Of a DNA stretch of 64,000 nucleotides, positions 1 to 48,128 are shown in pieces. The translations under genes and the position numbers were made by a program. Position 1 is the stretch's first letter; each line of letters starts with the position of its first letter. The DNA lies in the NCBI GenBank assembly GCA_016783155.1, contig JADHXB010000001.1, positions 1,228 through 65,227 on the forward strand. The letters are read 5' to 3'. The notes beneath the pieces are model-generated. The model ran no database searches and was not told the DNA's origin. It was given only the letters and a program-made list of their open reading frames with translations. The stretch is from Dehalococcoidia bacterium. GTDB taxonomy: Bacteria; Chloroflexota; Dehalococcoidia; GIF9; UBA5629.

Positions 1-882
1 AATGATATTGTCCTTTACCAGCCCTATAGGCGTGGCCGGGTCTTCCAGCCAGTATGGCTCGTTGAGGTCGGTGAAGCGCCTCATCCGCCAGCCCCCGACG
101 TCGTCAGTCTTCATGTAATCCATGAATTTCTTGAACCATTCCTTGCCTTTTTCTGATTGCTGGAGTTTGGCGAGGATGGATTGGGGCTTGTTTTTCTTAA
201 AGACGTCTTCCAGGTTCATTTCGATGGCTAGCTGTCCAAATTCCCACATCTTCTTGTCCATCTGATAGACCTTATTGTTGAAGCCTCGCATCATATCTTG
301 GAACTCAGGGTCCTGATCACTTATGCCGAAGCGCTCCTTAGTCATTGTCTCGAGCAATAGCCAGGTGTTAAATGAGGAATACATCGCCATAAAGTGGATT
401 TCCCACATTCTCATGTAGGCGCGCATCAAATCGTAGTTGTGATAGTACAGCTGGAGATTGGTGGCATTGTCAACATCAAGCTCAAGTAGCTTGATGTAAA
501 TGCTCAGGAGTTCTTGCTTGTAACCAGCCCACAGGCTGTCGAAGTCCTCAATCCAGGGGCGTAGCGCCTGGCGGAATTTGACTTCGCGTTCGGCAATTTC
601 CTTCTGGTCTCTCACTACGTGGAGGGCACAATAGATACCACTGTTCAAAATACGGATCTCCCAACCTTTGCAGGTGGGGATGCTCAACTCGGTACAAGCG
701 AACTTCAGTCCGTGGCTGCAGAATCTTGCCCACTGGTATCCGAACATGGTTGTCACTGGCGGTATGCTGTGCGTTCCGTCATGGAACCAGGAAGGCATCT
801 CGGCAAGGTCAATCTCTTTGATGAAGTCGTATCCGGGTGTTCCATCCCAGATTTTAACCTTTTGCTGCTTTTTCTCCGACAC
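1..882 (-). CDS. PpsA-like protein, N-terminal/central domain (paralog of 5116-6831 product); C-terminus truncated by window edge
   Basis: Minus-strand reading frame runs off the left edge with no stop, so it is absent from the ORF track. Its translation (..GKEWFKKFMDYMKTDDVGGWRMRRFTDLNEPYWLEDPATP..) aligns with residues of the 571-aa protein (..GKEWVEKDLNDFLLVKGCGWRSPRMMEFIIPSWWEDPTP..). Likely GTG start at 882 preceded by GGAGAAAAA; the alternative TTG at 933 would overlap the upstream gene. Confidence 0.55.
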   Translation of the reverse strand, partial: MSEKKQQKVKIWDGTPGYDFIKEIDLAEMPSWFHDGTHSIPPVTTMFGYQWARFCSHGLKFACTELSIPTCKGWEIRILNSGIYCALHVVRDQKEIAEREVKFRQALRPWIEDFDSLWAGYKQELLSIYIKLLELDVDNATNLQLYYHNYDLMRAYMRMWEIHFMAMYSSFNTWLLLETMTKERFGISDQDPEFQDMMRGFNNKVYQMDKKMWEFGQLAIEMNLEDVFKKNKPQSILAKLQQSEKGKEWFKKFMDYMKTDDVGGWRMRRFTDLNEPYWLEDPATPIGLVKDNII

Positions 883-929
883 TTTTTCTCCTACGACTAG
901 TTCGAGACTAGGCAGAATGGTATTTTTCG

Positions 930-1970
930 TCAAGGACTATAGAATCTTTTAGCAATCAGGTCAATCATACGGTCGGTGACCGATTCTGGTTTCTTGGCTG
1001 CCACCTTTGCTGGGCGGGTCTGTAGAACAAATACGTTATTGGGTGGGGTGGATTCAGGGTCAATAGCCCATTCTATGTCCTGCGGCTCACCCAGGCGCTC
1101 CTCGAGTAACATGGCCAGTTTAGCTACTGCTACTATCTCATCATTGCTCATGCACGGTATTGATTGCTTCTCCAGAGGCACGTCGTCCCAGTAGGCCCCT
1201 CTTTTCCTGGTTATTACCTGCTTTGCTTTTTTGCCAACATAGGTGTCTAATATAGCGAAGGCCTCTTTGTCCACTACGAACCTGTCCACATTCTCCGCCC
1301 CGCTGACCACTCCTTCTCCCAGGCCCCAGTTGGCATCAATTATTATCTTGGAGGTGTCACCGGTAACCGGGTTCACGGTGAAGGCGATGCCGGCTGAACG
1401 GGCATTTACCATCTTGGAGACAGCAACACCGAGTTCGTCTCCTACGATGGGGATATCTTTATTGACTCGGAAGGCAATAGCCCGGCTAGTATATGCACTT
1501 CCCCATACCTTCCTTATTTTGTCCACCACATCTTCGATGCCGATAACGTTCAGGTAGGTTTCAAACATGCCGGGTCGGCTTTCCGTCCCCGATGACCGCA
1601 CCGAGACGGCGACATTGGGGATTACCACCTTGTTGCACAGCTCTTCGTAGTATGAACCAACCATTCTCTTTATGTCTTCCGGTACCTCTTTGTCTTCAAT
1701 CGTGCTTTGGATATTCTGGCTCAATTCGTCAAAGATGGCAACGTTCTGACCTTTAAGCTCGCCAAGGCTGCTCACGTAGTGGGAAGTTTCCTCAGCCCAC
1801 CCGGTTTCCGCAGCAAATTTCCTGTACACTGCAATGGAAATGGCGAAGCCCGGCGGGACAGGTAAGCCCATTCGAACCATTTCTCCCAGGTTAGCGCATT
1901 TCTTGCCTACCAGGTTGTTATGCTCCTGCCCTAGTTCTTCGAACCGAAATATTAATTTGCCAGAGCTCAT
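930..1970 (-). CDS. PEP synthase/pyruvate phosphate dikinase N-terminal ATP-binding domain protein (phenylphosphate synthase PpsB-like, stand-alone)
   Basis: 346 aa; contains FEELGQEHNNLVGKKCANLGEM...GLPVPPGF, the hallmark of the PPDK_N/ATP-grasp nucleotide-binding domain. It has no phosphohistidine or PEP/pyruvate domains, so it is a split dikinase component. Sits directly upstream of the PpsA-like gene at 1-882. Confidence 0.85.
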   Translation of the reverse strand: MSSGKLIFRFEELGQEHNNLVGKKCANLGEMVRMGLPVPPGFAISIAVYRKFAAETGWAEETSHYVSSLGELKGQNVAIFDELSQNIQSTIEDKEVPEDIKRMVGSYYEELCNKVVIPNVAVSVRSSGTESRPGMFETYLNVIGIEDVVDKIRKVWGSAYTSRAIAFRVNKDIPIVGDELGVAVSKMVNARSAGIAFTVNPVTGDTSKIIIDANWGLGEGVVSGAENVDRFVVDKEAFAILDTYVGKKAKQVITRKRGAYWDDVPLEKQSIPCMSNDEIVAVAKLAMLLEERLGEPQDIEWAIDPESTPPNNVFVLQTRPAKVAAKKPESVTDRMIDLIAKRFYSP

Positions 1971-2560
1971 TTTTCCTCTGTCTCGACAATATTTGGCGCA
2001 AAGAGTTCAACTATGTTTTAGTAACTATAGTGGACGTTATTCACCTTTAATGTGCTGTCTATCCTCTATCAACACGGCGGAAACCTGGCAGGTGATGTAA
2101 GAGGAATCGCCCGAGGCCAAGTATAACAGCAAACTGTTTAGTTCGTCCATATCCCCCTTACTTTTTTAAGAAATTACACAAAACATGTTTTGGTTTCCCA
2201 GCCTACACGATGGTTGACAAATTTGCTAGACATGTGAAATAATACCCGTCGCGCATATCCACTTTTGGTTGGATACTGATTATAGCGTATAAACTACAAG
2301 AAATGAAATAGGCTCTTCTGTTATACACAGATGGCAGGGAACAGCTTGTAAAACGAGAGCAAGGCTACATTGAGGAATTAACCCGGTAGTCTTGGAATCC
2401 CCAACAAGTCAGGCAGAATTCTTAACTTAAATTGTGTATGATGCTTGGGGGAATTCAAGCGCAGTAAGGTCCTTAAGAGAGCATACTTGGGTGATAGGTC
2501 CTGCCAAAGATGAAAGCTCTCAATAACCTAAAGTGCAGCGGGAAGGGATAACAGACAAAG

Positions 2561-3337
2561 TTGTTGCTCCAAGGAAAGGTTGCGGTCATTACAGGCTCAA
2601 CGTCAGGTATTGGCAAGGCTGGTGCCATTGTATTTGCTCAAGAAGGCGCAAAAAGCGTCGTTAGTGGTAGAAATCGCCAACGAGGGGAGGAGGTTGTGAG
2701 CATAATAAGGGAACAAGGCAATGAGGCAAGCTTCATTCCGGCTGATATGCTCGTAGTGGCTGATATTGAGCGGCTCGTTAAAATAACTGTTGATACTTAT
2801 GGTCGGCTGGATATCTTTTGGCATAATGCCGGCATAGTCGAGCCAGACTATATCGAAAATATCACAGAAGAAATATATGATAATATGATGGCAGCACACT
2901 TGAAAGCAGGTGTCTTCGGTGCAAAATTTGCCGTTCCTGAAATGCGTAAAGCCGGGGGAGGGTCCATTCTATTCACTAGTTCGGTTGCCGGGCTGAAGCA
3001 ATCCGGCTATTCATTGACCTATTCGCTGGCAAAGACTGGGCTTGTAATGCTAACCAAGAAACTCGCGGTAGATTTGGCTAAAGATAACATCCGAGTCAAT
3101 TCTATCTGTCCGGGTAGGGTTGAAACATCTATGAGATTATCTATTGCCGAGCAAAGAGGGCGAGCGATGGGCATTGACCAGGAGGAATGGGTGAGGAGAG
3201 ACAAGAAGCGTATACCTATGGGCAGGTACATCACCGAAAAGGAAGTAGTTGATGGGGCATTATTCCTTGTCTCAGATAGAGCCTCCTCAATTACGGGCGT
3301 TGCCCTCCCCATTGACGGTGGCTTCTTGGCGGTATAA
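2561..3337 (+). CDS. short-chain dehydrogenase/reductase (SDR)
   Basis: GKVAVITGSTSGIGKA Rossmann motif. Start is a TTG in the ORF track, so the true start is uncertain. Confidence 0.8.
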   Translation: MLLQGKVAVITGSTSGIGKAGAIVFAQEGAKSVVSGRNRQRGEEVVSIIREQGNEASFIPADMLVVADIERLVKITVDTYGRLDIFWHNAGIVEPDYIENITEEIYDNMMAAHLKAGVFGAKFAVPEMRKAGGGSILFTSSVAGLKQSGYSLTYSLAKTGLVMLTKKLAVDLAKDNIRVNSICPGRVETSMRLSIAEQRGRAMGIDQEEWVRRDKKRIPMGRYITEKEVVDGALFLVSDRASSITGVALPIDGGFLAV

Positions 3338-3452
3338 TATTTCGTCTGGAAATATTGGGTCAGCTTTACTGCTCCCTCTGGAACGAAGGTTTCCAGAGAG
3401 GTCGGTTAGCTGATTGGTGACATCGAATAAATAATATAGAAAGGAGATTTCA

Positions 3453-4202
3453 ATGGGAAGATTAGATGGGAAAGTGGCCATAGTGACCGGTGGGGGCAAG
3501 GGCTTGGGTAGGGCTTTTTGCTTTGGCCTTGCCAAAGAGGGGGCTAAGGTGGTGATGGCAGTACACCGCCTTGATGAAGAGGCAACGAAAGCAGCCAAGG
3601 AAATAGAGACTAAAGGCGGTTACGCTCTGGAAGTTGACGTTACTAAAGAAGAAGATACCCAGCGCATGGCTGAGGAGACAGTTAAGAAATTTGGGCGAAT
3701 CGATATTCTGGTTAACAATGCTGCCTACTACTATGGGGTGGGTAGGAAGCTGTTTTACGAGGTTTCGTCTGAAGAATGGGACCGGGCGTTGGCGGTGGGT
3801 GCCAAGGGAGCCTGGCTGTGCGCTAAAGCAGTATTCCCTCAGATGAAGAAACAGGGGAAGGGTAAAATTATTAACCTATCTTCCGAGACAGTATTTTCAC
3901 CTACCAAGGGTATGATTCACTACGTTACTTCCAAGGCTGCGGTTATCGGTATCACCCGGGTTCTTGCCGGAGAACTGGGGCAATATGGCATCTGTGTTAA
4001 TGCCGTAGCTCCTGGTTTTACTGATACTGCGGCAAGCCGAACTATAGGCAGTATCGAGAAGTTCGACGTAAGCTCTATCCCTCTGGGGCGTGTCGGAGTA
4101 CCCGAGGATGTAATTGGTAGCGTCATCTTCTTTGCCAGCGATGATAGCGACTTCGTTAGCGGACAAACATTACTGGTCGATGGTGCAAGGCGGGTGCACT
4201 AG
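3453..4202 (+). CDS. short-chain dehydrogenase/reductase (SDR), tandem paralog A
   Basis: GKVAIVTGGGKGLGRA glycine-rich NAD(P)-binding motif and a Tyr/Lys active-site region (HYVTSKAAV). GGAGA RBS before the ATG. Confidence 0.85.
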   Translation: MGRLDGKVAIVTGGGKGLGRAFCFGLAKEGAKVVMAVHRLDEEATKAAKEIETKGGYALEVDVTKEEDTQRMAEETVKKFGRIDILVNNAAYYYGVGRKLFYEVSSEEWDRALAVGAKGAWLCAKAVFPQMKKQGKGKIINLSSETVFSPTKGMIHYVTSKAAVIGITRVLAGELGQYGICVNAVAPGFTDTAASRTIGSIEKFDVSSIPLGRVGVPEDVIGSVIFFASDDSDFVSGQTLLVDGARRVH

Positions 4203-4267
4203 AGGGCGCTGGCATTCAATTGATGTGGTTTTCTAGCTGAATAACATTTTGTTACGAGGAGCCTTAA

Positions 4268-5020
4268 ATGGGAAGATTAAAAAATAAGGTAGCCATAGTG
4301 ACTGGTGGTGGCAGGGGGTTGGGTAAAACCTATTGCCTGAGAATGGCTGAGGAAGAAGCCAAAATAGTTGTGGCAGATATCCTTGACCGAGAGGCAGAGG
4401 AAACAGTCAGTGAAATCAAGGCAAAGGGTGGCAACGCCATTGCAATAAAAGCTGATGTGACCTCCGAAGCTGATACCCAGCGCATGGCTGAGGAAACAGT
4501 TAAGAAGTTTGGTCGAATCGATATCCTGGTTAACAGCGCTGGCTATTACTATGGGATGGTGAGGAAGCCATTTAATGAGGTCTCGTCAGAAGAGTGGGAC
4601 AAGGCGATGCTGGTGAATGCCAAGGGAACATGGCTTTGCTGCAAAGCAGTATTTCCCCAGATGAAAAAACAGGGGAAAGGTAAAATTATCAATGTATCCT
4701 CCGAGGCAGTTTTTGCCCCGACTAAGGGTTTTATTCACTACACTGCTTCCAAGGCTGCGGTTATCGGTATCACCCGGGTTCTTGCCGGAGAGCTGGGGCA
4801 ATATGGCATCTGTGTTAATGTGATAGTCCCTGGTGTCGTCGATACTGCGGCGACCAGAACCTACATCAATATCGAGAAGTTCGATATAGGTTCTGTCCCT
4901 CTGGGGCGTGTTGAACTGCCGGAGGATGTGGTTGGTAGCGTCGTCTTCTTTGCCAGCGATGATAGCGACTTTGTTAGCGGTCAGTCACTGCTAATCGATG
5001 GCGCGAGGCGGGTGCACTAG
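4268..5020 (+). CDS. short-chain dehydrogenase/reductase (SDR), tandem paralog B
   Basis: 250 aa, about 75% identical to the 3453-4202 product. Several nucleotide tracts are near-identical over more than 70 nt. Same SDR motifs. Confidence 0.85.
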   Translation: MGRLKNKVAIVTGGGRGLGKTYCLRMAEEEAKIVVADILDREAEETVSEIKAKGGNAIAIKADVTSEADTQRMAEETVKKFGRIDILVNSAGYYYGMVRKPFNEVSSEEWDKAMLVNAKGTWLCCKAVFPQMKKQGKGKIINVSSEAVFAPTKGFIHYTASKAAVIGITRVLAGELGQYGICVNVIVPGVVDTAATRTYINIEKFDIGSVPLGRVELPEDVVGSVVFFASDDSDFVSGQSLLIDGARRVH

Positions 5021-5115
5021 AGGGAATGAGTGGATGTGATAGAGAATAATGAAGTATTTGACTATCAAACAGACTTACGGTATTGTATTAAGTAAAAATT
5101 AAGGAGGGAAAAAAG

Positions 5116-6831
5116 ATGTCCTGGACGTGGAACTTGTATGTCAGAGAATTTATGCCTCAAAGAGACCTGAAGAAATACCCGATGTGGTTCATGAACTTTG
5201 GCCATAGCTACCCGGCGTGGACGCCCCTATTTGGCTGGCACTGGAATTATGCCTTAGCTCACGGTCTCACATACGGCGTTAATGAGACATGGATACCTAC
5301 CATCAGGGGGAGTGAGGTTCGAAATATAGAAGGGTGTGCCCTAGCTGCCGCTTCCAGGATTAGTGATGAGGCTGAGATTGCGGAAAGAGAAAAGAAATTC
5401 AAAAAGTACATACTTGAAGAGTACGCTCCCAATTGGGACAAGCTTTATAAAGGTATGGAAGACGAAATAAATGGACTTTCTAAAAAGTTCAGGACTTATG
5501 ATTACGAAAAGGCAACACAGTACGAGTTGTACAAGGTATTCAGGGAGGCGGTACAGTATCTCTACCGTTCTTGGGAAGGTCACTTCTATATGATGTTTCC
5601 CATGTATACCGCCTACTGGTATTGTGACGAGATTGCTGCGGAATACGGCGGTGTACAGGAGTTTTCTCCCACATGGCATAAAATAATACGAGGCTATGAC
5701 AATGACCTTTTTGCGCAGGACAAAGCGCTATGGGGACTCCGTACCCGTGTCTTGGAGCTTAAGATTGAGGATATCTTCACTGAGAATGCTGCCTCCGAGG
5801 TAATCCCGGCTCTAAAAAAGACTGCGGCTGGTAAGGAATGGGTGGAGAAGGATCTAAACGATTTTTTGCTGGTAAAGGGCTGCGGTTGGCGCTCGCCGCG
5901 GATGATGGAGTTTATCATTCCTTCATGGTGGGAAGACCCAACGCCAGCCATAAATCACATTCAGCAATACCTCTCGCTGTCAAAGGACGTTAAAGCTCCA
6001 TTCCTACTTGATACCATAAGACCCCGCTTGGTCAAGGAGCGGGAAGAATTAACCCGTGACTTAATCGACAAAGTGAAGGCCGCCGGCTATCCCGACATGG
6101 ACTGGTTTCTGGCGCTCCTTAACGTGAGTCAGAGGACAAGCTCTTACAGCGAAAGTCATGATGTGGCATGGGAACAGGGGTGCTTGACCACCTTCCGCTA
6201 CTGTGTGAGGAAGATTGGAGAGAGGCTGGTAAAGTTTGGCACTATTGGAACTCCTGATGACATGTTCTTTTTCATTCCTGATGAACTGGAGTTATTTATT
6301 GCTTATCCCGACGCATACGATGTCAAAGACCTTGCTGAGGAACGCAAGAAAACCTGGACGGCACAGAAGGAATATAGCTCACGGCCGCCTATTTTTACCA
6401 GTGGACCATTAACACCGGAGGATATAAATAAGCATCAGGTTAGTGTTCACGATGCCATAGTTTCCAAGGTTGTTGCTGGTGTGGAAGCTGCCCGCAGGCC
6501 TGAAACCGGCGCCATCTGCTTTGGTAATTGCGGTAGTCCTGCTGGCACTGTCGAAGGCAGAGCACATCTGGTACTAGCAAATGAAGATGTATTTGCAGTG
6601 CAACCAGGCGATATTCTGATTTGTCCCTCTATGTCTTCGGGGTGGACTCCGGTGCTACCGCTGGCTAAAGCAATAGTCACTAATGGTGGCGGTTCTCTCA
6701 GCCATGCTTGCATTCACGGCAGAGAATATGATATTCCAGTAGTATCAAACACGCGTGATGCCACGATGGTTATCAAAGAAGGCGAAAAAATCCGGGTTGA
6801 TGCTACTGAGGGACTTGTCTTCCGAGTATAA
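5116..6831 (+). CDS. PEP-utilizing-enzyme mobile (phosphohistidine) domain protein, phenylphosphate synthase PpsA-like
   Basis: 571 aa. C-terminus TNGGGSLSHACIHGREYDIPVVS...IRVDATEGLVF matches the PEP-utilizers swivel domain with the phospho-His region. About 440 aa of N-terminal domain is unassigned. Strong RBS AAGGAGGG. Confidence 0.8.
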   Translation: MSWTWNLYVREFMPQRDLKKYPMWFMNFGHSYPAWTPLFGWHWNYALAHGLTYGVNETWIPTIRGSEVRNIEGCALAAASRISDEAEIAEREKKFKKYILEEYAPNWDKLYKGMEDEINGLSKKFRTYDYEKATQYELYKVFREAVQYLYRSWEGHFYMMFPMYTAYWYCDEIAAEYGGVQEFSPTWHKIIRGYDNDLFAQDKALWGLRTRVLELKIEDIFTENAASEVIPALKKTAAGKEWVEKDLNDFLLVKGCGWRSPRMMEFIIPSWWEDPTPAINHIQQYLSLSKDVKAPFLLDTIRPRLVKEREELTRDLIDKVKAAGYPDMDWFLALLNVSQRTSSYSESHDVAWEQGCLTTFRYCVRKIGERLVKFGTIGTPDDMFFFIPDELELFIAYPDAYDVKDLAEERKKTWTAQKEYSSRPPIFTSGPLTPEDINKHQVSVHDAIVSKVVAGVEAARRPETGAICFGNCGSPAGTVEGRAHLVLANEDVFAVQPGDILICPSMSSGWTPVLPLAKAIVTNGGGSLSHACIHGREYDIPVVSNTRDATMVIKEGEKIRVDATEGLVFRV

Positions 6832-6967
6832 TAAACTAAAGTAGTACCAGAGCTTGGGAAGCAAGGGTCTAGTCTTGTTATCGGAGACTAAGGCGATTGT
6901 TGTCTCAGCTAAGTATTCGACTTATTGACTAAGCGCTTTTACTGGTAAGAGAGCATTTACAGGTGAA

Positions 6968-7240
6968 ATGAGTGTCAGGGTCAAGTTGCCATCTGTCCTG
7001 CAAGAGTTTAGCTGTGGCGCTGAGACATGTGAGGTAACCGGCAAAACGGTTGGTGAATGCATTAAGAGCCTTGAGATGCGATTTCCCGATATCAAAAACC
7101 ACCTGTTCGATAGGCAGGGGAAGCTACTTCGAATATTTGGCATTTATTTAAAGTCCGATGGTATTTATCCTGTGGACATAGATACTCCTGTGCAGGACAA
7201 CGACGAGCTTATCATCTTAAACTTCATTATGGGTGGCTAG
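6968..7240 (+). CDS. MoaD/ThiS-like ubiquitin-fold protein with C-terminal GlyGly
   Basis: 90 aa ending ..NFIMGG. Beta-grasp-like pattern. Lies immediately upstream of the AOR gene, as with the AorD/AorE-type partners of bacterial AOR operons. Confidence 0.6.
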   Translation: MSVRVKLPSVLQEFSCGAETCEVTGKTVGECIKSLEMRFPDIKNHLFDRQGKLLRIFGIYLKSDGIYPVDIDTPVQDNDELIILNFIMGG

Positions 7241-7276
7241 TACTCACCCGGCTAATATTAACTTTGGAGGTGAAAA

Positions 7277-9118
7277 ATGCGTGGTTATACTGGCAAGCTT
7301 TTGCGTATTAATCTAAGTAACCGTAGGAGCCAAGTCGAGGATATACCTGAGCAATTGATGAAGGATTTCCTTGGGGGGCGAGGTCTTGCTGTTAAGTATC
7401 TTTACAGCGAGCTTAAGCCTGGGGTAGACGCATTAGGGCCGGACAACAAATTGTTGTTCATGATGGGGCCCCTTGGTGCTACTACCGCCATGTCTGTTTC
7501 CAGAATAGCTGTAGTAACCAAGAGCCCTATCACTGGATGTATAGCTAAATCTATCGCAGGTGGCAACTTCGGTGCCTTCCTTAAGTTCGCTGGTTTCGAC
7601 GGGGTAATATTAGAAGGTAAGGCTGAGAAGCCAACTTATATCCATATTGATGGCGATGGGGTTCATATGCTGGATGCGGATGAAATTTGGGGGCTGGATA
7701 CTGAAGAAACTCAAATGAAACTGCGGCAGATGCATGGCAACTCAACGAAGACTATTTGTATCGGGCCAGCTGGGGAGAAGCTGGTTCGCTATGCCATAGT
7801 TATTAGCGAGCTCCGCTGTGGTGGGCGTACTGGCGTGGGTACCGTGATGGGAGCCAAAAACTTAAAGGCTATAGCTGTCAACTCATCCGGACCACTCGGT
7901 GTATATGACTCGCAGCAATTCAAAAGTTTAGCCAGGGAGCAGATCGAAGGCTTAAGGACAAGTCCCCGGCGGATTCAGATGACCGATTTTGGAACATCAT
8001 ACCTGACCTTAGGCTTTGAGAAGATGGGTATATTCCCGGTGAAGAACTTTCAGGAGGGACATCTTGAAGGTGTCGAGAAGATAAGCGATGAAGCATTCGC
8101 TAAGATAAAGGTCGGGAACAATGGTTGCTATGGCTGTATGACAAAGTGCGGTCAAGAACGCAGGGTAACTGAAGGCCCCTATGCCGGCGCCTTTAGCGAA
8201 GGACCTGATTATGAGTCCATCTGGTCTTTGGGTGGCAATTGGGCCAATACTAATTTGGGTTCTATAATAGCGGCAGACTCCCTCTGTGACAAGCTCGGCA
8301 TGGATACTATCAGCGCGGGTAGCGCTGTTGGCTTCGCCTGCGAGCTATTTGAAAGAGGGATAATTACCAAGAAAGATACCGATGGACTTGACCTTACCTG
8401 GGGTAACCATGGCGATATGCTAAAGCTAGTGGAGAAGATTGGCAGACGGGAAGGGTTTGGAGAGTTGCTTGGTGAAGGTACCAAACGAGCCGCCGAACAT
8501 ATTGGCAAGGGTGCTGAAGCCTATGCTATGCATGTCAAGGGCCTTGAGATTCCAGCCTATGAACCGCGCGCTGTTAAGGGCTATGGACTAATGTTTGCTA
8601 CTTCAAACATAGGTGCCAACCATATGTATGGTCGACCTAGGGAAGAACTAGCTGGCAAGGTGGATAGATTTGCTGATGAAGGCAAGGGCAAAGACATTGC
8701 CCGCAACCAAATAGCACAGGCAGTGGAAGACTCGGTTGTTCAGTGCAGCTTTACGCCTGCTACCGGGCTTACTCCCGAGTCACGTGCGAAGCTCCTTGTG
8801 GCAGCTACTGGGTTCAACGAGTTTAGTGACCCGGCCTATTTGGACCTGATAGGGGAAAGAATTCTTTGCCTTGAGCGTTCGTTTAATGTGCGTGATGGGT
8901 TCAGTCGCAAGGATGACACCCTCCCTGCCAGGATGCTAACCGAGCCCTTAAAGAATGCTGGCCCAGCTACGGGACAGGTAGTACGGAAGCTGGATACGCT
9001 TCTGGATGAGTATTATGATGCCCTTGGCTATTCTCCTCAAGGCATACCTACAACGGAGAAGCTGGGGCAAATAGGCTTAGACTGGGTGATAGAGGATATC
9101 AAGGGATTTGTTAAGTGA
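7277..9118 (+). CDS. aor: tungsten/molybdenum aldehyde:ferredoxin oxidoreductase (AOR family) #1
   Basis: 613 aa. N-terminus MRGYTGKLLRINLS typical of AOR_N; Cys-containing cluster region NNGCYGCMTKCG; C-terminal AOR catalytic domains. GGAGGTG RBS. Confidence 0.92.
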   Translation: MRGYTGKLLRINLSNRRSQVEDIPEQLMKDFLGGRGLAVKYLYSELKPGVDALGPDNKLLFMMGPLGATTAMSVSRIAVVTKSPITGCIAKSIAGGNFGAFLKFAGFDGVILEGKAEKPTYIHIDGDGVHMLDADEIWGLDTEETQMKLRQMHGNSTKTICIGPAGEKLVRYAIVISELRCGGRTGVGTVMGAKNLKAIAVNSSGPLGVYDSQQFKSLAREQIEGLRTSPRRIQMTDFGTSYLTLGFEKMGIFPVKNFQEGHLEGVEKISDEAFAKIKVGNNGCYGCMTKCGQERRVTEGPYAGAFSEGPDYESIWSLGGNWANTNLGSIIAADSLCDKLGMDTISAGSAVGFACELFERGIITKKDTDGLDLTWGNHGDMLKLVEKIGRREGFGELLGEGTKRAAEHIGKGAEAYAMHVKGLEIPAYEPRAVKGYGLMFATSNIGANHMYGRPREELAGKVDRFADEGKGKDIARNQIAQAVEDSVVQCSFTPATGLTPESRAKLLVAATGFNEFSDPAYLDLIGERILCLERSFNVRDGFSRKDDTLPARMLTEPLKNAGPATGQVVRKLDTLLDEYYDALGYSPQGIPTTEKLGQIGLDWVIEDIKGFVK

Positions 9119-9155
9119 ACCGCTTGCTCCTTAAAGCTCTTTTTTCTGCCCAGCT

Positions 9156-10001
9156 CTACTGCTTCTGGCGTTGCCGGTAAGCTTCAATGTAACGTCTGGC
9201 ATGTCTATCGCGACCCAGGATGAGGTCAGTGGCCACAATGGCTGGTCGCACCTTGGCTGCATCTGTGATGAGGCAGGTGATACCTGCGGCAACAGCCATA
9301 GCTACGAAGGCATTATTGAGCAAGCCGCGGTCAGGCAAGCCAAAAGAGATATTGCTGGCTCCCAGTGTCATGTTCACTCCCAATTCAGCCTTAATCCTCC
9401 GAATGGCTTCTATGACTTCCGGTCCAGAGCTGGTATCGGCTCCTACGGCGAAAGCCAGGCAATCAATGACAATGTTCTCTCGGGCGATACCAGCTGCCTC
9501 AGCACGCTCCACTATCTTATGGGCAATGCTTACCCTACGTCCTGCATCCTTTGGTATACCATCATCGTCTTGTACCAAACCAACGACTGCTGCTCCATAT
9601 TCTTTCACCATAGGTAGAACCCTGGTTAAGGAGTGTTCTTCACCGCTAACAGAGTTGATGAGCGGTTTGCCCTTGTAGATTTTGAGAGCTGCTTCCAAAG
9701 CCGCCGGATTATTACTGTCAAGGCATAGAGGTATATCTACGGTGTCCATCACTGCCTGCACTGCCTGGGGGAGCAGTGTTACCTCGTTCACGCCGAATGT
9801 GCCTACGTTAACATCAAGAATGTCAGCCCCGGCTTGTACTTGAGCCAGGGCTTCACTGCGTACAATATCCAAGTTGCCCGCCTTCAGAGCCTCTTGAAGT
9901 TTTGTTTTCCCGGCAGGATTGATACGCTCGCCGATAAGCACTGTGGGTTGGGCATCACCGATTATTACTTCTTTTGTGGGGCTTGACACTATCGTTTCCA
10001 T
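9156..10001 (-). CDS. pterin-binding methyltransferase (MtrH/AcsE-like; methyl-corrinoid:tetrahydrofolate methyltransferase, MT-II)
   Basis: 281 aa with a pterin-binding TIM-barrel pattern (..VLIGERINPAGK..DILDVNVG..PLCLDSNN..). Last gene of the corrinoid operon; start overlaps the RACo stop. Confidence 0.8.
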   Translation of the reverse strand: METIVSSPTKEVIIGDAQPTVLIGERINPAGKTKLQEALKAGNLDIVRSEALAQVQAGADILDVNVGTFGVNEVTLLPQAVQAVMDTVDIPLCLDSNNPAALEAALKIYKGKPLINSVSGEEHSLTRVLPMVKEYGAAVVGLVQDDDGIPKDAGRRVSIAHKIVERAEAAGIARENIVIDCLAFAVGADTSSGPEVIEAIRRIKAELGVNMTLGASNISFGLPDRGLLNNAFVAMAVAAGITCLITDAAKVRPAIVATDLILGRDRHARRYIEAYRQRQKQ

Positions 10002-11887
10002 CAGTCGATTTCCTCCCTTTTACCGTCTATAATCCTGTATTGTCCCAGGTAACTCGCCTGGATGAAGGTCTGATCAAAGCCAGGAGCACCGGCTAATTCA
10101 ATGTACTTGACTCGGGAGGCAACAACCTGCGCCTCAGCTCGCTTGGTAAGGGAAATCAGTGCCAGTTTGGCTCCCATGCCGGCAGCGTTTCCTGCCTGTT
10201 GGAAACGGTTTAGAGGCAGTGATGGCAACATGCCAATTGTTACCGCACTGGCCACATCGATGTAGGTGCCAAAGGCTCCGGCGATAATCACCTGCTTAAT
10301 TTTGTCTTCAGGGCAGCCGCTCGCTTCTAAAAGTGTCTGGATACCGCTGCGGATGGCAGCCTTGGCCAGTTGCAGTTCTCTGATATCGTGCTGAGTGATA
10401 GTGATGGCTGGCTTCCCTCCTCGTTCTTCTTTACCAACCAATACAAACTCGCGTTGCCCTTTGTAGGTACGAACACGAGGGTGGTTGTCCGTTATTCTGC
10501 CGCCTTCATCGATGACTTTAGTCAGATAAAGCTGGGATAGGGCATCTAGTATACCAGACCCGCAAATGCCGATTGGTGGTGCTCCGTCAATCGTCTGGTA
10601 CTGTATGATATCATCTACAATTCGTAGGCGTTCGATAGCGCCAGTGGCAGCCCGCATACCATACTTGATATGACCGCCTTCGAATGCTGGACCCGAGGCA
10701 CAGGAGGTGGAAGTAATCTTCCCATCATGTATCAGAGAAACCTCGGTATTAGTCCCGATGTCCAGAGCCACTACTGGTATTTTGGCTGGCAGTACTTCAG
10801 TTGCCAGCAACATGGCTACATGGTCGGCACCAACGAAACCGGCGATGTTGGGCAGCAAGTGAACATATGCCCCGGGAGAAATATGCAAGCCCAGGTCGCC
10901 AGCCTTAACGTCCACAGCCCTGCTAACCGCAGGGACAAAGGGAGACAGAGCCAGTTGTTTTACTGGCAAACCGAGGAAAAGGTGGTGCATGGCGGTATTG
11001 CCGACTACTACTGCCTCGACAATCTCCTCTATGCCGGCGTTAGCTTCGGCACACAGGTCAGCGCAAAGTCCGTTGATTGCCTCGACAGCCAGCTTTTGTA
11101 ACAGCATGCCATCATCCGGCGAGTGTACGACACCAGTAATACGGCTGATGATGTCCTCTCCGTGGCTGATTTGGGGGTTCATGACCCCTTTGGCTGCTAA
11201 AGTCAGGCCATCGCTCAGATTAATCAGATAGCCGGCAATCTTGGTTGTGCCCAGGTCTATGGCTAACCCCAGTTGGTGGCTTGACTGGGGAAGAAGAGCT
11301 ATTACTTCGTCATTGCGGACTACAGCCTGGAACTCCCAGTTCCAAGAACGTATTTGTGTGGAAAGGACACGCAGGACATTAATGTCAATTTTGCCGCAGT
11401 TTAATTGGTGTTGCTGGTTTAGCACCTGGAGCAAACGGTCGGCATCAGCGTCTGGTGCCGACAACGATGGAGCTTCCATCTGAATGCGGTAGGCTCGAAC
11501 AGGCGGCTCCGGATGAACTTTTACCTCTAATCCCTCTACCTGGATTCGCTGGGTGGTGGTCATCGACTCGGGTGGCACAGTCAATTTGCAGTCACTAAGA
11601 GGATAAGTCTGACAGGCTAGACGCCAGCCCTCCTTCAGTTCTTGGGATGTAAATGCCTCCCGCTCGTTAGGCGTTGGTTTTGAGACAGTGCCACTTAGAA
11701 CTTGAACCTTGCATGAGTGGCATGTTCCCTTGCCTCCGCATACGCTACTGATACCCACGCCGAGCCGGCGAGCACAAGCCAGAAGGGACTCGTTGTTTTG
11801 ACATTCCCCTCTTCGACCTACCGGCTCAAAATCAATTGTACAAGCGGTCATTCTCTTTCTGCCTTGGCTTTTATCTTGTTGCTCCAC
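10001..11887 (-). CDS. reductive activator of corrinoid proteins (RACo; [2Fe-2S] ferredoxin + ASKHA ATPase)
   Basis: 628 aa. N-terminal plant-type ferredoxin Cys cluster (CGGKGTCHSCKV), then a long ATPase domain typical of corrinoid activation proteins. Translationally coupled to its neighbours. Confidence 0.85.
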   Translation of the reverse strand: MEQQDKSQGRKRMTACTIDFEPVGRRGECQNNESLLACARRLGVGISSVCGGKGTCHSCKVQVLSGTVSKPTPNEREAFTSQELKEGWRLACQTYPLSDCKLTVPPESMTTTQRIQVEGLEVKVHPEPPVRAYRIQMEAPSLSAPDADADRLLQVLNQQHQLNCGKIDINVLRVLSTQIRSWNWEFQAVVRNDEVIALLPQSSHQLGLAIDLGTTKIAGYLINLSDGLTLAAKGVMNPQISHGEDIISRITGVVHSPDDGMLLQKLAVEAINGLCADLCAEANAGIEEIVEAVVVGNTAMHHLFLGLPVKQLALSPFVPAVSRAVDVKAGDLGLHISPGAYVHLLPNIAGFVGADHVAMLLATEVLPAKIPVVALDIGTNTEVSLIHDGKITSTSCASGPAFEGGHIKYGMRAATGAIERLRIVDDIIQYQTIDGAPPIGICGSGILDALSQLYLTKVIDEGGRITDNHPRVRTYKGQREFVLVGKEERGGKPAITITQHDIRELQLAKAAIRSGIQTLLEASGCPEDKIKQVIIAGAFGTYIDVASAVTIGMLPSLPLNRFQQAGNAAGMGAKLALISLTKRAEAQVVASRVKYIELAGAPGFDQTFIQASYLGQYRIIDGKREEID

Positions 11888-12577
11888 TTATGCCTGGATT
11901 CTATAAGGACAGGTTTTCCTGAGACTGCAGCGGGTACAGACTTCAGCTCGTGTCCACGTTGCCATTTGTGGTCCTATGCCGATGACCATGGAAACTGATT
12001 TGCGGGGAACCATTATTCCTGAGGCGGTCAGGCTCACGCCGATTTCTTGTGTGTTGACCAGTTCAAATAAATTCCACTGCTCGGTAAGGGGCAAGCCAGG
12101 CCAACCCGGGCTAACAGGACTGCTTGTTTGATGCCCGTGCGATGTGGCCCGGCTGGCGATGAGTCTGCAGGCTTCTGGAGCCAGCATGTCCACGGCGGCG
12201 CTCCCGATGCCGTCCAGAATCATCCCGCGCAGAGTCTCGCCGCTTTTGCTGTAGTCTGTTACCTGTTTTTCCAGCTTGGGGCCGATGGTGCAAACGAGTG
12301 CGGCAAGCTCTTTTGCCTCCGGGAAGATTGTGGGTAGTAATGAGCCGTGTATCGCTTTGTCACCCTCCAGCGATACTTGGCCGGAGCTCATCCCGGTTAC
12401 CTGATAGTATTCATAGGCCACCGCTGGCTCCAGGAGATGAGTGTTCTCCACAGTGGCTAGTAGTTCAAGAATTAGATTTTTTATCTCAGGCCTGATTTTA
12501 GAATGTCCCCTGAATCCCTGCCGTCGCAGCACTTCCCCGGTCTTCAAGCTCAGGGGGATATCACGAATTGCAGGCAT
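11888..12577 (-). CDS. methionine synthase (MetH) activation-domain-like protein
   Basis: 229 aa. The segment SPGWPGLPLTEQWNLFELVNTQEIGVSLTASGIMVPRKSVSMVIGIG parallels the MetH reactivation-domain core (..[43 protein letters not shown]..). C-terminal CTRCSLRKTCPY Cys motif. Confidence 0.6.
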   Translation of the reverse strand: MPAIRDIPLSLKTGEVLRRQGFRGHSKIRPEIKNLILELLATVENTHLLEPAVAYEYYQVTGMSSGQVSLEGDKAIHGSLLPTIFPEAKELAALVCTIGPKLEKQVTDYSKSGETLRGMILDGIGSAAVDMLAPEACRLIASRATSHGHQTSSPVSPGWPGLPLTEQWNLFELVNTQEIGVSLTASGIMVPRKSVSMVIGIGPQMATWTRAEVCTRCSLRKTCPYRIQA

Positions 12578-12679
12578 GTATTTCTCTTTCGGGGCCTTGC
12601 CAGTGGCGATAGCATGCCATCAGCATGGCCCCGATACACAGCCTCTCCTCCACCATTATAACCTCAGCCCGTCGAGTAT

Positions 12680-14017
12680 CTATTTGTATACGCCGTATTC
12701 CTTGACGGTGTCAACTATCACCTTGAGATTCTCAAACTTGACCTCATCGAAGAACGCACCATTGGCCATGATATAACCGCCGCCTTTGCCGCAAGTATCG
12801 ATGAGTTTCTTGGCGTAAGCTTTCGAGTCCTCGGGTGTGCCTACGGTCAACAAATCCATGGGCATGTTGCCGCCGACGCAGGCAATGCCATCCAGTGCTT
12901 TCTTGGCTTTAGCCATATCTGTCTGGTCGAACAACCATGCAGTCTTACCTTTAGGTAAGTCCCGGATAACCTCCAGGCGCGAGTTATAGCCTCCCTCAGC
13001 CCAAATAAATGGTACCACTCCCTCATCAACTAAGCCCATGATGACCTTTCTAAGGGTAGGCCAGTAGAATTTCTTGAACTGCTCATCGGAGAGGAAACCA
13101 TCAGCGCCCTTGTGCAGGGGCATGAAAATCAGGGGGCATCCGTTCTGTTTTGCTGCGCCTACTCCCAGCTGAATAAACATTGGCGTTAGTGCTTCCATGG
13201 CCTGGATGAGCTTATCCGGCTGCCGGTACATATCCAGCATTATACCTCTAGTTCCCCTGAGGGTATCGCCAATCACGTCAAAAGGAGCTTTGGTAGCGCC
13301 AGCCTGGTAGGCGGGAAATCCTAATGCGGGCATCTCGTGGAGGAAAGCACCGACAGCCCCTATCCATTTCAGGGCTTCATCGCCGGCTTCAAGAAGAGCC
13401 TTATAGGCGGCTTTAACGGGAGGTAGACCATAGGGAATAAAAGGAAGGCTAACTCCATACATTTCGGTTAGTCCGGCGAGAGGAGGCAGTGTCTGGAGGG
13501 GCTCCAGCGCTCCGAATACGCGCGACGGCCAGATGTAGTATAAGAAGTACAACGCGTTATGAATCAAGATATCATATTCATCCGCCTTCATGTATTCGCC
13601 TTCAATACACTGGTAAGTGGTTTCAGGCGGAACCCCATGGCCGGGCCACTGGTATAATTTGAAGTCAAGAATCTCAACGAATTTCCCCGGGCTAGGCACA
13701 AAGGGGCCACCGTGCGCATCCGGCTGAAAGTCCGTGTAGAATTTTTTCCATGCCGGTGCGATTTTGTCATAGTTATACATGACATCGTGAGGGGTTAATC
13801 CGGAATAATAAGCGGGGGCAAAGCTAGGAATTAGAAAGACCGGCACCCTGTCAGGCAATTTCTTCAGTTGAATAGCATCTTTTATCCTGGTTGCTCTCTC
13901 CTTGTATAACTTCTCGGCTTCGGGGCTGGCAAACTCTACGCCCTGTGGTGAAAGCCACCCTTGAAACAGGGCTTCCTGCTTTTCATCTGATGTCATATCT
14001 TCCCATTTCTTTTCCAT
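12680..14017 (-). CDS. uroporphyrinogen-decarboxylase-family corrinoid methyltransferase (MT-I, substrate:corrinoid methyltransferase)
   Basis: 445 aa with a URO-D/MtaA-like TIM-barrel pattern (PDRVPVF..., PFDVIGD, IWAEGG). Sits between the corrinoid protein and activation genes. Confidence 0.7.
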   Translation of the reverse strand: MEKKWEDMTSDEKQEALFQGWLSPQGVEFASPEAEKLYKERATRIKDAIQLKKLPDRVPVFLIPSFAPAYYSGLTPHDVMYNYDKIAPAWKKFYTDFQPDAHGGPFVPSPGKFVEILDFKLYQWPGHGVPPETTYQCIEGEYMKADEYDILIHNALYFLYYIWPSRVFGALEPLQTLPPLAGLTEMYGVSLPFIPYGLPPVKAAYKALLEAGDEALKWIGAVGAFLHEMPALGFPAYQAGATKAPFDVIGDTLRGTRGIMLDMYRQPDKLIQAMEALTPMFIQLGVGAAKQNGCPLIFMPLHKGADGFLSDEQFKKFYWPTLRKVIMGLVDEGVVPFIWAEGGYNSRLEVIRDLPKGKTAWLFDQTDMAKAKKALDGIACVGGNMPMDLLTVGTPEDSKAYAKKLIDTCGKGGGYIMANGAFFDEVKFENLKVIVDTVKEYGVYK

Positions 14018-14053
14018 ATTTTATTTCCTCCTGTATATCTTTGCTAAGGATTC

Positions 14054-14686
14054 TTATCCAGCGCCGGCCCATTTCTTGGCCAGGGATACCCCTGCCATAG
14101 CATCCAGGCCGTAAGCATCAGCGCCGGTATATTTCCTTATCTCCTCGCTGATTTGGCCACCGCCAATCATGACCTTCACATTGTCTCTCAAGCCGGCAGC
14201 TTGTATGGCCTCTATAGTCTGTTTCATTGAATCGAAAGCCAACGCCAAAAAGCCGCTTAAGCCAACAATAGGGGCACCGCTCTCTTTTATCTTTTCCACG
14301 AACTTCTGCGCCGGGACATCCACGCCCAGGTCGTATACCTCGAAACCGTTAACATCGAGCATAAAGACGACGATATCCTTGCCGATATCATGTATATCCC
14401 CGGCAACAGTGCCAAAAACAACCTTGCCCACACGCTTAATCTCCGCTTCCTTGCTCATCCTCGGCTTAACCATGTCGGTTACTGCTTTCAGTATCTCACC
14501 GGAGTATACCAGGTCGGGCATGAAATACTCGCTGCTGGCAAAGCGCTTGCCCACGAGTTCCATAGCTTTCCTGGCATCTTCCAGAATTTTGAGTGGCTCT
14601 TCACCAGCACTCAGCCTGCCTTCAACGATCTTAAGAGCTTCTTGTTCCTTCAAATCAGCTAATGTGCTAACTAGGTCTTTAGCCAT
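14054..14686 (-). CDS. cobalamin-binding corrinoid protein (B12-binding_2 cap + Rossmann B12 domain)
   Basis: 210 aa. DxHxxG motif present (GDIHDIGKDIV) and GGG...cobalamin-binding region. First gene of the operon, with an AT-rich promoter region upstream (14687-15036). Confidence 0.9.
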   Translation of the reverse strand: MAKDLVSTLADLKEQEALKIVEGRLSAGEEPLKILEDARKAMELVGKRFASSEYFMPDLVYSGEILKAVTDMVKPRMSKEAEIKRVGKVVFGTVAGDIHDIGKDIVVFMLDVNGFEVYDLGVDVPAQKFVEKIKESGAPIVGLSGFLALAFDSMKQTIEAIQAAGLRDNVKVMIGGGQISEEIRKYTGADAYGLDAMAGVSLAKKWAGAG

Positions 14687-17014: not shown

Positions 17015-17017
17015 GAC

Positions 17018-18328: not shown

Positions 18329-18338
18329 TTTATCCTCC

Positions 18339-30753: not shown

Positions 30754-30784
30754 GCCATATAAGGTTTAGATAAGGAGAATAGAG

Positions 30785-31297
30785 ATGGCAGACATACAAA
30801 CAGCAAGAATAGTAGGGACTCCAGCTCTGGAGGGCACCTATATCTCTGAAATGGATATGTGGCCATTGGAATGCCGGGAATTTAACCGGAACTACCAGTT
30901 TTATGATAATCTCAGGGAAGGAAGGTTTACAACGACCAAGTGCCAAAAGTGCGGGCATATTGCCTTCCCACCGGGTGTTATATGCCCCAAGTGCTGGTCT
31001 GAAGAACTGGAATGGGTGGACCTGCCGCAGAGAGCCACGGTGGTTGCCGTTACCGAAACGCAAGCCGGGGCCCCACTTGGCTTTCCTTTGCCGCTAATCA
31101 TTGCCTGGCTTAATTTTGGCAAGGACAGTCCGATAAAGCACCTGCTGGGTCGCGTCATAAATTGTGCCGAGGGCGAGCTTAAAGATGGCGATGAAGTTAA
31201 GTTTGTGGTATTCGATGTTCCAGCGCATCCGATAGATGTCAAGAAAGAAACCAAGGTATGCGATAGGGTGTATTATGCTTTCGAGCGTGTGAAATAA
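30785..31297 (+). CDS. DUF35 OB-fold / rubredoxin-like zinc-ribbon protein (thiolase partner, BbsA-like)
   Basis: 170 aa. CQKCGHIAFPPGVICPKCWS zinc ribbon followed by an OB-fold region. Canonical partner of SCP-x thiolases. Confidence 0.75.
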   Translation: MADIQTARIVGTPALEGTYISEMDMWPLECREFNRNYQFYDNLREGRFTTTKCQKCGHIAFPPGVICPKCWSEELEWVDLPQRATVVAVTETQAGAPLGFPLPLIIAWLNFGKDSPIKHLLGRVINCAEGELKDGDEVKFVVFDVPAHPIDVKKETKVCDRVYYAFERVK

Positions 31298-31353
31298 ACG
31301 ACTTGAAAACAATGTTAAACTGCCAGCAACTTTATTGAAGGAGGAAAAGACAC

Positions 31354-32109: not shown

Positions 32110-32207
32110 ATGGTCAAGCTTACCACAAGATAACGACTGACCCTGTCGATGGAATAGAAGTCTGCTCTACTAACCACAGGCAACCTGGGTGAATGTAGGA
32201 GACATTA

Positions 32208-33542: not shown

Positions 33543-33546
33543 TAGG

Positions 33547-48108: not shown

Positions 48109-48128
48109 AAGTCAAGGGGGGGGTATAG

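Follow-up and report, generated by a model that had tools for sequence, protein, structure and literature searches.

The stretch of DNA analysed here, hereafter the window, comprises 64,000 nucleotides of contig JADHXB010000001.1 from a Dehalococcoidia bacterium (NCBI GenBank assembly GCA_016783155.1). Three genes at its left end, designated I, H1, and H2, encode proteins that public sources label 'pyruvate, water dikinase'. A previous description made without database searches (the sequence-only reading) likened them to phenylphosphate synthase, PpsAB. PpsAB, CreHI, and HpeHI are two-component small-molecule dikinases and have been defined as split homologs of rifampin phosphotransferase (RPH); their substrates are phenol for PpsAB, 4-cresol for CreHI, and 4-hydroxyacetophenone and acetovanillone for HpeHI (Dexter et al., 2025, PMC12167813). 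The locus described in this study very probably encodes an RPH-type small-molecule dikinase split over several proteins. The three genes are listed below.

930-1970, minus strand: I, ATP-grasp (ATP/AMP-binding) subunit, 346 aa, with a PPDK_N match
1-882, minus strand: H1, first 294 codons of a 570-aa substrate-binding and swivel-histidine subunit; GTG start, no stop codon
5116-6831, plus strand: H2, substrate-binding and swivel-histidine subunit, 571 aa, with a PEP-utilizers match at residues 496-566

Domain organization and fold of I, H1, and H2

The sole domain found in I was PPDK_N, matched with an E value of 4.4e-81 over profile positions 2-319 of 328. The sequence-only reading had described I as a stand-alone ATP-binding PPDK_N protein, and the 346-aa open reading frame (ORF) bears this out. 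I also matched the PDB entry 9GOJ (E 1.7e-50), which was deposited with the 2025 HpeHI paper reporting the crystal structure of HpeI (PMC12167813). The identity of I is 36% to PpsB and 40% to a CreI-type protein. A second I homolog was not found in the window by BLAST, and I is the only ATP-grasp gene of its type there. H1 lies downstream of I in the same direction on the minus strand. Its start codon is the GTG at 882, with GGAG ahead of it. The window edge truncates H1, and the swivel domain and the catalytic His528 fall outside the window. The full-length gene, encoding 570 aa, is present on identical metagenome contigs (L001:11089-12801) that carry an identical I gene; L001 is the same locus as the window. 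The C-terminus of full-length H1 is a PEP-utilizers swivel domain (E 6e-22), and the same domain was found in H2 (E 1.1e-19). Thus, the truncated PpsA-like gene and the second PpsA-like paralog with a swivel domain were both correctly recognized in the sequence-only reading. H1 and H2 are paralogs with 32% identity over their full length. The close homologs of these proteins are named as Dehalococcoidia or Dehalococcoidales metagenome-assembled genomes (MAGs).

The swivel motif is TNGGGSLSH in H2, with His530 (codon 6703-6705) as the predicted catalytic residue, and TDAGGTLCH in H1, with His528. The swivel His is invariant in the 73 of 73 H-type proteins aligned. None of the relatives found was a conventional pyruvate, water dikinase with a pyruvate-binding domain, and the fused relatives among them carry an RPH-type domain. 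In the H1-like proteins of loci L020-L044 (Thermodesulfobacteriota and others), the swivel motif reads VDRGASLSH and not T/SxxGGxxxH; the His is retained, and the hydrogen-bonding Thr/Ser and one Gly are substituted.

The large N-terminal domain of approximately 440 aa had been called unlike the phosphoenolpyruvate (PEP)/pyruvate-binding domain, which holds, and unassigned, which does not. In profile scans, no PEP/pyruvate-binding domain was matched in I, H1, or H2, and PEP synthase models matched the ATP-grasp or swivel parts only, below their cut-offs. The local Pfam copy detects only the swivel domain in H1 and H2; in the precomputed Pfam annotation that accompanies the public collection, both N-terminal parts are assigned to PF27448 (Rph_4th). 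An AlphaFold2 model of H2 built from 22 homologs had a pLDDT of 89.6 and a pTM of 0.89. When the model was compared with the PDB using Foldseek, the best match was the RPH structure 5fbt, which aligned with the whole chain (E 1.6e-18, TM 0.65, 18% identity). RPH structures were the only whole-length matches; pyruvate, phosphate dikinase (PPDK), pyruvate kinase, and Enzyme I matched the swivel part only. Because PF27448 and the whole-length Foldseek match point to the same family, the N-terminal domain is an acceptor-binding domain of the RPH type, i.e., the predicted substrate-binding domain of the H subunits.

Relation to PpsA and distribution of related loci

Two reference loci were used. 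The PpsA reference was plasmid pAZKH of Azoarcus sp. KH32C (L012), which carries ppsA-ppsB-ppsC and, behind them, ppcBDAG and genes for UbiD and UbiX. The Cre-type reference was a Rhodococcus ruber plasmid with genes for a P450, creI, creH, an SDR (short-chain dehydrogenase), a ferredoxin, a reductase, an HD hydrolase, and an aldehyde dehydrogenase; this order is that of the Corynebacterium glutamicum cre cluster, creJ-I-H-G-F-E-D-C. The identity to bona fide PpsA is 25% for H2 and 26% for H1, and PpsA and the CreH-type protein share 43%. Against NCBIfam NF006152 (PpsA, cut-off 723 bits), H2 scored 109, H1 scored 140, and Azoarcus KH32C PpsA scored 1300. Against NF006150 (CreH type, cut-off 650 bits), the scores were 107.5 for H2, 163.5 for H1, and 1168 for the R. 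ruber CreH-type protein. NF006153 recognizes both PpsA and the CreH-type protein, with H1 and H2 below its cut-off. Across the three models, H1 and H2 reached only about 107-232 bits, all below cut-off. Against NF041857 (RPH, cut-off 999 bits), H2 scored 64.6 and I scored 184. Weak partial NCBIfam matches to PigC and RedH were also seen.

An exhaustive HMMER search returned 162 representative proteins at E ≤ 1e-30. The best 150 of these 162 matches were mostly approximately 550-570 aa long and 25-37% identical to H2, and ten distant representatives carried generic labels only. The short H-type proteins thus constitute a large, mostly unnamed radiation. In a distance-based neighbour-joining tree without bootstrap support, H1 and H2 fell into two sister subclades of one clade, apart from the PpsA/CreH clade. 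This split agrees with the identity values and the NCBIfam scores. Literature searches on phenylphosphate synthase in Dehalococcoidia/Chloroflexi, on phenylphosphate synthase-like proteins, and on cresol phosphorylation in Syntrophorhabdus gave no report on the H1/H2 clade.

The neighbourhoods of related dikinase genes were compared among species-representative genomes, with neighbours annotated by BLAST against reference proteins. The loci span approximately 10 kb on each side, and 'absent' means absent nearby. No UbiD or Ppc homolog was found in the loci of the H1/H2 clade (0/34); in the PpsA/CreH clade, Ppc or UbiD homologs were present in four of nine loci. The most constant neighbour in the H1/H2 clade was a CreG-like SDR, which adjoins the dikinase genes at 29 of the 34 loci. 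A CrtO-like flavoprotein pair was found at 26 loci, an HD or DUF89 phosphatase at 20, and either an aldehyde:ferredoxin oxidoreductase (AOR) like AOR1 of the window (see below) or a CreC-like aldehyde dehydrogenase at 18; aldehyde dehydrogenases were present at 4 of the 34 loci. By BLAST, a PpsC homolog was present in no locus but the Azoarcus reference L012. PpsC is stimulatory and is not known to be essential.

Taken together, the 25-26% identity to PpsA, the failed NCBIfam cut-offs, the separate clade, and the lack of a UbiD-type carboxylase in all 34 loci indicate that the H1/H2 system is a distant relative, and not an ortholog, of phenylphosphate synthase. The match to phenylphosphate synthase put forward in the sequence-only reading therefore stands for the split two-protein architecture and fails for orthology. 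Its statement that UbiD and UbiX genes are missing from the window also stands: none was found in the scanned ORFs of at least 150 aa, the range covered by the domain scan of the window (a few overlapping ORFs judged spurious were left out). Its suggestion that the carboxylase lies elsewhere became unlikely, because none was present in the 34 loci of the clade. A look beyond the window edge for ppsC or UbiD-like genes had also been proposed; among the genes called in the 10 kb past the left edge, there was no UbiD or UbiX. These 10 kb contain an ABC transporter with a Peripla_BP_6 protein adjoining H1, a CoA ligase, a MarR-like regulator, and CbiX/CbiC.

Other Dehalococcoidales have the same cluster, with identities of 70-80% for H2 and 74-79% for H1. 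In Syntrophorhabdaceae, among them Syntrophorhabdus aromaticivorans UI, the H2 orthologs (46-50%) are accompanied by one I gene and an H1-like gene. In Desulfomonile, Syntrophaceae, Desulfobacterales, Anaeromyxobacter, and MAGs of Actinomycetes and Proteobacteria, H1-like genes (40-46%) were found with I. Two H genes with one I gene occur in the window, L008, and L014-L019. Syntrophorhabdus is reported to have a separate canonical Pps-Ppc operon (PMC5946492); its dikinase cluster is therefore an additional system and not its phenol system. The closest cultured orthologs, with 58% identity for I and 65% for H1, are those of Desulfatiglans anilini DSM 4660 (L094, AULM01000015.1). There, on scaffold 15, adjacent I and H genes are followed by genes for a response regulator, a CrtO-like flavoprotein, an SDR, and, in place of an HD or DUF89 phosphatase, a low-molecular-weight phosphotyrosine phosphatase (PTP). 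These genes form a third dikinase set in D. anilini beside its published Pps and Pas systems. In the sister lineage L042, a Clostridia MAG, the I and H genes are directly followed by homologs of PpcB, PpcA, UbiX, and UbiD.

Some features of the related loci were noted in addition. The CrtO/CrtI-like pair (L008 5070-8864 and L017-L044) consists of proteins of approximately 546 and 561 aa and adjoins H1-like dikinase genes; its best NCBIfam match is the beta-carotene ketolase CrtO, far below cut-off. Small ABM-like and 218-aa proteins accompany the pair. In locus L096 (GCA_964500485.1, CAZCNU010000002.1), an H-type subunit and an Oxidored_FMN protein (old-yellow-enzyme family) lie amid nine tandem UPF0261 paralogs, and there is no ATP-grasp gene within 7 kb of the H-type subunit.

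Neighbouring genes in the window

The genes and sites around the dikinase genes are as follows.

2214-2243, plus strand: promoter-like site, TTGACA, 18-nt spacer, AATAAT, with TG before the second hexamer; consensus match only
2561-3337, plus strand: SDR1, short-chain dehydrogenase (adh_short, adh_short_C2)
3453-4202, plus strand: SDR2, CreG-like SDR by similarity to the cre-cluster SDR; candidate benzylic/side-chain alcohol dehydrogenase
4268-5020, plus strand: SDR3, paralog of SDR2 (73% identity to SDR2, 37% to the CreG-type SDR)
6968-7240, plus strand: ThiS/MoaD-like ORF, 90 aa (ThiS E 1.5e-4, just above the Pfam cut-off)
7277-9118, plus strand: AOR1, tungsten-type AOR (AFOR_N, AFOR_C)
9156-10001, minus strand: pterin-binding methyltransferase
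10001-11887, minus strand: RACo-type reductive activase
11888-12577, minus strand: Met_synt_B12-like ORF
12680-14017, minus strand: URO-D-like methyltransferase
14054-14686, minus strand: B12-binding protein
32208-33542, plus strand: PaaK-like aryl-CoA ligase (AMP-binding_C_2; best NCBIfam match PaaK, below cut-off)

A divergent spacer of 590 bp separates I on the minus strand from the plus-strand genes SDR1 to AOR1. The promoter-like site lies upstream of the latter genes and, with 11 of 12 consensus matches, was the best in 1-9300. A scan of the intergenic region 1971-2560 for operators or repeats gave two weak direct repeats only.

The three SDR genes between the dikinase genes were found as the sequence-only reading had placed them. 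SDR1 has 67-81% identity to SDRs in the same position in L014-L016 and is only 27-33% identical to SDR2, SDR3, and the CreG-type SDR. SDR2 is 42% identical to the SDR of the R. ruber cre-type cluster, and (S)-1-phenylethanol dehydrogenase is among its matches in the PDB. A chain of cluster-linked SDRs joins SDR2 to the cre cluster: SDR2 and L027 share 62%, L027 and L020 share 63%, L020 and L033 share 60%, and L033 and the cre-cluster SDR share 55%. Over the cluster-linked SDRs, the chain range was given as 51-63%, and the unrelated SDR background as 26-38%. It is this chain of intermediates together with synteny, and not the 42% identity itself, that makes the link between SDR2 and CreG specific.

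Ten cluster-linked AORs of other phyla are 51-57% identical to AOR1 and 32-49% identical to the three other AORs of the window. Judged by these identities, AOR1 and the AORs linked to dikinase clusters in other phyla are orthologs. The ThiS/MoaD-like ORF lies upstream of AOR1 and has a counterpart of 71% identity in L014. Adjoining AOR1 on the minus strand (9156-14686) is a complete corrinoid-dependent O-demethylase-type set. In L016, the cluster lies directly behind RACo and pterin-binding methyltransferase genes, and ORFs of L014 match the O-demethylase set in size and order; O-demethylase genes thus adjoin the cluster in the window, L014, and L016. The PaaK-like ligase at 32208-33542 shares 70-73% identity with ligases that lie within dikinase clusters of Syntrophorhabdus, Thermodesulfobacteriota, and other anaerobes. 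This identity is unusually high across phyla. The ligase gene, distant as it is in the window, may belong to the dikinase pathway.

Among the scanned ORFs of the window, there was no CBS-domain (PpsC-like), P450, or phosphatase gene. Neither a CreD-type phosphohydrolase nor a CreC-type aldehyde dehydrogenase was found in the window.

The remainder of the window holds further genes of note. It has four AOR paralogs in 64 kb (7277-9118, 24594-26450, 33788-35626, and 53511-55274), of which the last three are 36-46% identical to AOR1; only AOR1 is orthologous to the dikinase-cluster AORs. The block 29560-35626 encodes an SCP-x-type thiolase, a DUF35/ChsH2 zinc-ribbon protein, an SDR, the PaaK-like ligase, and an AOR. 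Two transhydroxylase-like pairs of the pyrogallol-phloroglucinol type (40718-43312 with 39884-40714, and 56784-59771 with 55930-56817) each consist of an AhtL-like large subunit and a 4Fe-4S/CarboxypepD_reg small subunit of the molybdoenzyme type, and an FmdE-like gene (55294-55908) stands beside one of them. These pairs suggest trihydroxybenzene metabolism in a Dehalococcoidia. An Amidohydro_2 protein (36069-37031, minus strand), 29 kb from the dikinase genes, is the sole candidate aromatic (de)carboxylase in the window; non-oxidative hydroxybenzoate (de)carboxylases belong to its family. A 2-oxoacid dehydrogenase complex (E1 alpha, E1 beta, E2, and E3) is encoded with a lipoate-protein ligase and a radical-SAM gene at 47128-53388, in a gene repertoire that is otherwise strictly anaerobic. 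At 15410-19799 on the minus strand, two FAD_binding_4 flavoproteins flank a CCG/4Fe-4S protein (GlcD/GlcF-like), beside an AMP-binding ligase.

Proposed role, alternatives, and comparison with known systems

By analogy with PpsAB, HpeHI, and RPH (PMC12167813), I would bind ATP, and H530 of H2 or H528 of H1, the swivel His residues, would attack the beta-phosphate. The gamma-phosphate would be released as Pi. The phospho-histidine would then swing back to the substrate-binding domain of its own subunit and phosphorylate a small-molecule acceptor, with the net reaction ATP + acceptor + water -> AMP + Pi + acceptor-phosphate. Most likely, the single I serves both H1 and H2, which would differ in acceptor specificity. 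A common I is proposed because the window has two diverged H genes and one I gene, a combination also seen in Syntrophorhabdaceae.

The likeliest acceptor is the phenolic hydroxyl group of monomers that derive from lignin or tyrosine and have an oxidisable side chain, such as hydroxybenzyl or vanillyl alcohols and aldehydes or alkylphenols. The view in the sequence-only reading that another hydroxylated compound is phosphorylated is thus the one favoured by the evidence. The aryl phosphate would not be carboxylated. The CreG-like SDRs would convert the side-chain alcohol to the aldehyde and AOR1 the aldehyde to the acid, followed by CoA ligation, and the neighbouring corrinoid O-demethylase would handle methoxy groups. 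Since no hydroxylase was found in the window, the substrates may already be alcohols or aldehydes of the hydroxybenzyl or vanillyl type, which fits the adjacent O-demethylase. Dephosphorylation may be encoded elsewhere. We consider the chances of this scheme as a whole, with one I serving two H subunits and with phosphorylation preceding oxidation of the side chain by SDR and AOR, to be about even; those of a phenolic acceptor feeding a Cre-like side-chain oxidation are even at best and perhaps slightly lower.

Several points weigh against this scheme. The sharing of I is read from gene counts within about 20-64 kb and not from whole genomes, and the acceptor is proposed solely on the basis of the neighbouring genes. 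No phosphatase was found in the window to account for the fate of the phosphate group; BLAST likewise found neither the CrtO-like flavoprotein pair nor other clade-specific partners in the window. The 42% identity of SDR2 to CreG alone is no higher than that of SDR2 to generic FabG structures in the PDB, and it was rejected as stand-alone evidence because the FabG proteins score equally. Members of the superfamily also act on other groups: RPH phosphorylates an aliphatic hydroxyl of rifampin, and PigC and RedH act on an aldehyde oxygen. Phenylphosphoamidate synthase, another member, phosphorylates an amine (PMC7500099).

Alternatively, the acceptor could be non-phenolic, namely a benzylic or aliphatic alcohol or an enol derived from a ketone product of the neighbouring SDRs; its phosphorylation would set up an elimination, an isomerisation, or the formation of a C-C bond by providing a leaving group or an enol phosphate. 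The constancy of the SDR (29/34 loci), the match of SDR2 to (S)-1-phenylethanol dehydrogenase, the weak partial matches to PigC and RedH, and the conversion of bound rifampin to rifampin-phosphate by RPH, the sole H-fold homolog with a solved structure, are all in keeping with such an acceptor. However, the characterised two-component members all use aromatic ring substituents, i.e., the phenolic hydroxyl for PpsAB, CreHI, and HpeHI and the aniline amino group for Pas. The phosphatases of related loci include the aryl-phosphate-type low-molecular-weight PTP and a CreD-like HD hydrolase, and no lyase or carboxylase partner is evident; we therefore regard a non-phenolic acceptor as unlikely. A split antibiotic-inactivating phosphotransferase for rifamycin-type resistance, or an ordinary PEP synthase in pieces, is barely credible. 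The RPH fold match does span the whole H2 chain, and the public label of the proteins is 'pyruvate, water dikinase', but the identity to RPH is 18%, the score is about 65 bits against a cut-off of 999, and the catabolic context is conserved across anaerobes. A split PEP synthase was rejected because there is no PEP/pyruvate-binding domain.

A genuine phenylphosphate synthase acting on phenol, with its phenylphosphate carboxylase encoded elsewhere in the genome, is improbable: the identity to PpsA (25-26%), the scores of 109 and 140 bits against the cut-off of 723, and the separate clade all argue against it. So do the lack of PpsC, UbiD, and UbiX in the scanned window and of UbiD and UbiX in the 10 kb beyond, the counts of UbiD-type carboxylases (0/34 clade loci versus 4/9 in the PpsA/CreH clade), and the separate Pps-Ppc operon of Syntrophorhabdus (PMC5946492). 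In its favour are the PpsAB-like split architecture with the catalytic His, the sister lineage L042, whose I and H genes adjoin PpcB, PpcA, UbiX, and UbiD homologs, and the weak turnover of phenol by HpeHI (PMC12167813). Still more improbable is an arylamine kinase like the phenylphosphoamidate synthase (Pas-alpha/Pas-beta) of D. anilini, which would activate aniline-type compounds. Pas-alpha is also a short H-type protein (554 aa) and only 27-28% identical to PpsA (PMC7500099), and the cultured organism with the closest orthologs of H1 (65%) and I (58%) is D. anilini. These orthologs, however, lie on scaffold 15, and the ani cluster lies on scaffold 58. Pas-alpha and Pas-beta (H567DRAFT_03871/03868) belong to this ani cluster, which includes a UbiD-type carboxylase, and act on an amine substrate (PMC7500099). 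In the ani cluster, Pas-beta and Pas-alpha are separated and then followed by the carboxylase, whereas I and H are adjacent on scaffold 15, and no carboxylase adjoins the dikinase genes of the window.

The phosphorylation of phenolic monomers ahead of side-chain oxidation has a precedent in the Cre pathway. In C. glutamicum, 4-cresol is phosphorylated, the methyl group is converted to the alcohol, the aldehyde, and the acid on the phosphorylated ring, and a phosphohydrolase then removes the phosphate. It is conceivable, though rather doubtful, that the H1/H2 clade is an oxygen-independent counterpart of Cre, widespread in strict anaerobes such as Dehalococcoidales, Syntrophorhabdus, Desulfatiglans, Desulfomonile, and Syntrophaceae, in which phospho-protected side-chain oxidation would be carried out by a CreG-like SDR and a tungsten AOR. 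In such a pathway, one ATP-grasp subunit would feed two interchangeable specificity subunits, and the CrtO-like flavoprotein pair would take the place of the P450 in most lineages. This pair, which occurs in related loci and not in the window, could be a candidate oxygen-independent substitute for the Cre P450; the idea of CrtO as a hydroxylase rests on carotenoid ketolase chemistry. A phosphatase of the HD, DUF89, or low-molecular-weight PTP type would then take off the phosphate. The Dehalococcoidia module would be coupled to the corrinoid O-demethylation of lignin-derived methoxyphenols, and in S. aromaticivorans the dikinase cluster could be the p-cresol route.

The family of two-component dikinases was recognized as late as 2025, on the basis of three examples that are aerobic or denitrifying. 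Enzymes of this kind are known; what the locus reveals is a new, deep branch, common among strictly anaerobic bacteria of sediments, peat, and digesters. The logic of this branch differs, with two specificity subunits per ATP-grasp subunit, no carboxylase, and SDR and tungsten AOR partners. If the proposed role is true, phosphorylation to protect and trap the substrate would be a general strategy in the anaerobic breakdown of lignin- and tyrosine-derived phenolics. Metagenome studies that take any split 'PpsA/PpsB' pair as a sign of phenol carboxylation would over-annotate. Related genes are available in the cultured organisms D. anilini DSM 4660 and S. aromaticivorans UI.

Compared with the known systems, the dikinase of the window shares with PpsAB, CreHI, and HpeHI a separate ATP-grasp subunit, a partner that combines a substrate-binding domain of the RPH type with a swivel domain at its C-terminus, a catalytic His within the motif T/SxxGGxxxH, the lack of a pyruvate-binding domain, and a setting of aromatic catabolism. 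It differs from them in several respects. The identity of H1 and H2 to PpsA and the CreH-type protein is only 24-26%, whereas the latter two share 43%; H1 and H2 are approximately 40 residues shorter (570 versus about 610-640 aa) and fail the NCBIfam PRK08296 cut-offs. The Dehalococcoidia locus has two H subunits per I and an AOR instead of an aldehyde dehydrogenase, it is without PpsC, UbiD carboxylase, P450, and biotin carboxylase, and its host is strictly anaerobic.

The likeness to the Cre pathway of C. glutamicum and Rhodococcus lies in the company of the dikinase, namely an SDR of the CreG type and an enzyme for aldehyde oxidation; in the H1/H2 clade, related loci also have a CreD-like HD phosphohydrolase, joined in facultative bacteria by a CreC-like aldehyde dehydrogenase. 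AOR1 could replace CreC. Unlike the Cre cluster, the window has no detected P450 system (CreJEF) or phosphatase, and its dikinase belongs to a different clade; related loci have the CrtO-like flavoprotein pair instead of the P450, and the window has neither. With Pas, the system shares the split dikinase and a short alpha subunit distant from PpsA, Pas-alpha being compared by its published description only; Pas, however, acts on an amine and is encoded with a UbiD-type carboxylase, and the dikinase of the window has no adjacent carboxylase. RPH (PDB 5FBT and 5HV1) has the same three functional modules and the same fold of the substrate-binding and swivel parts, but it is one polypeptide of approximately 865 aa with an antibiotic substrate, a resistance role, and 18% identity. 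PEP synthase and PPDK have the ATP-grasp and swivel-histidine modules and dikinase chemistry in common with the I, H1, and H2 proteins; they are single polypeptides with a C-terminal PEP/pyruvate-binding TIM barrel, which I, H1, and H2 do not carry.

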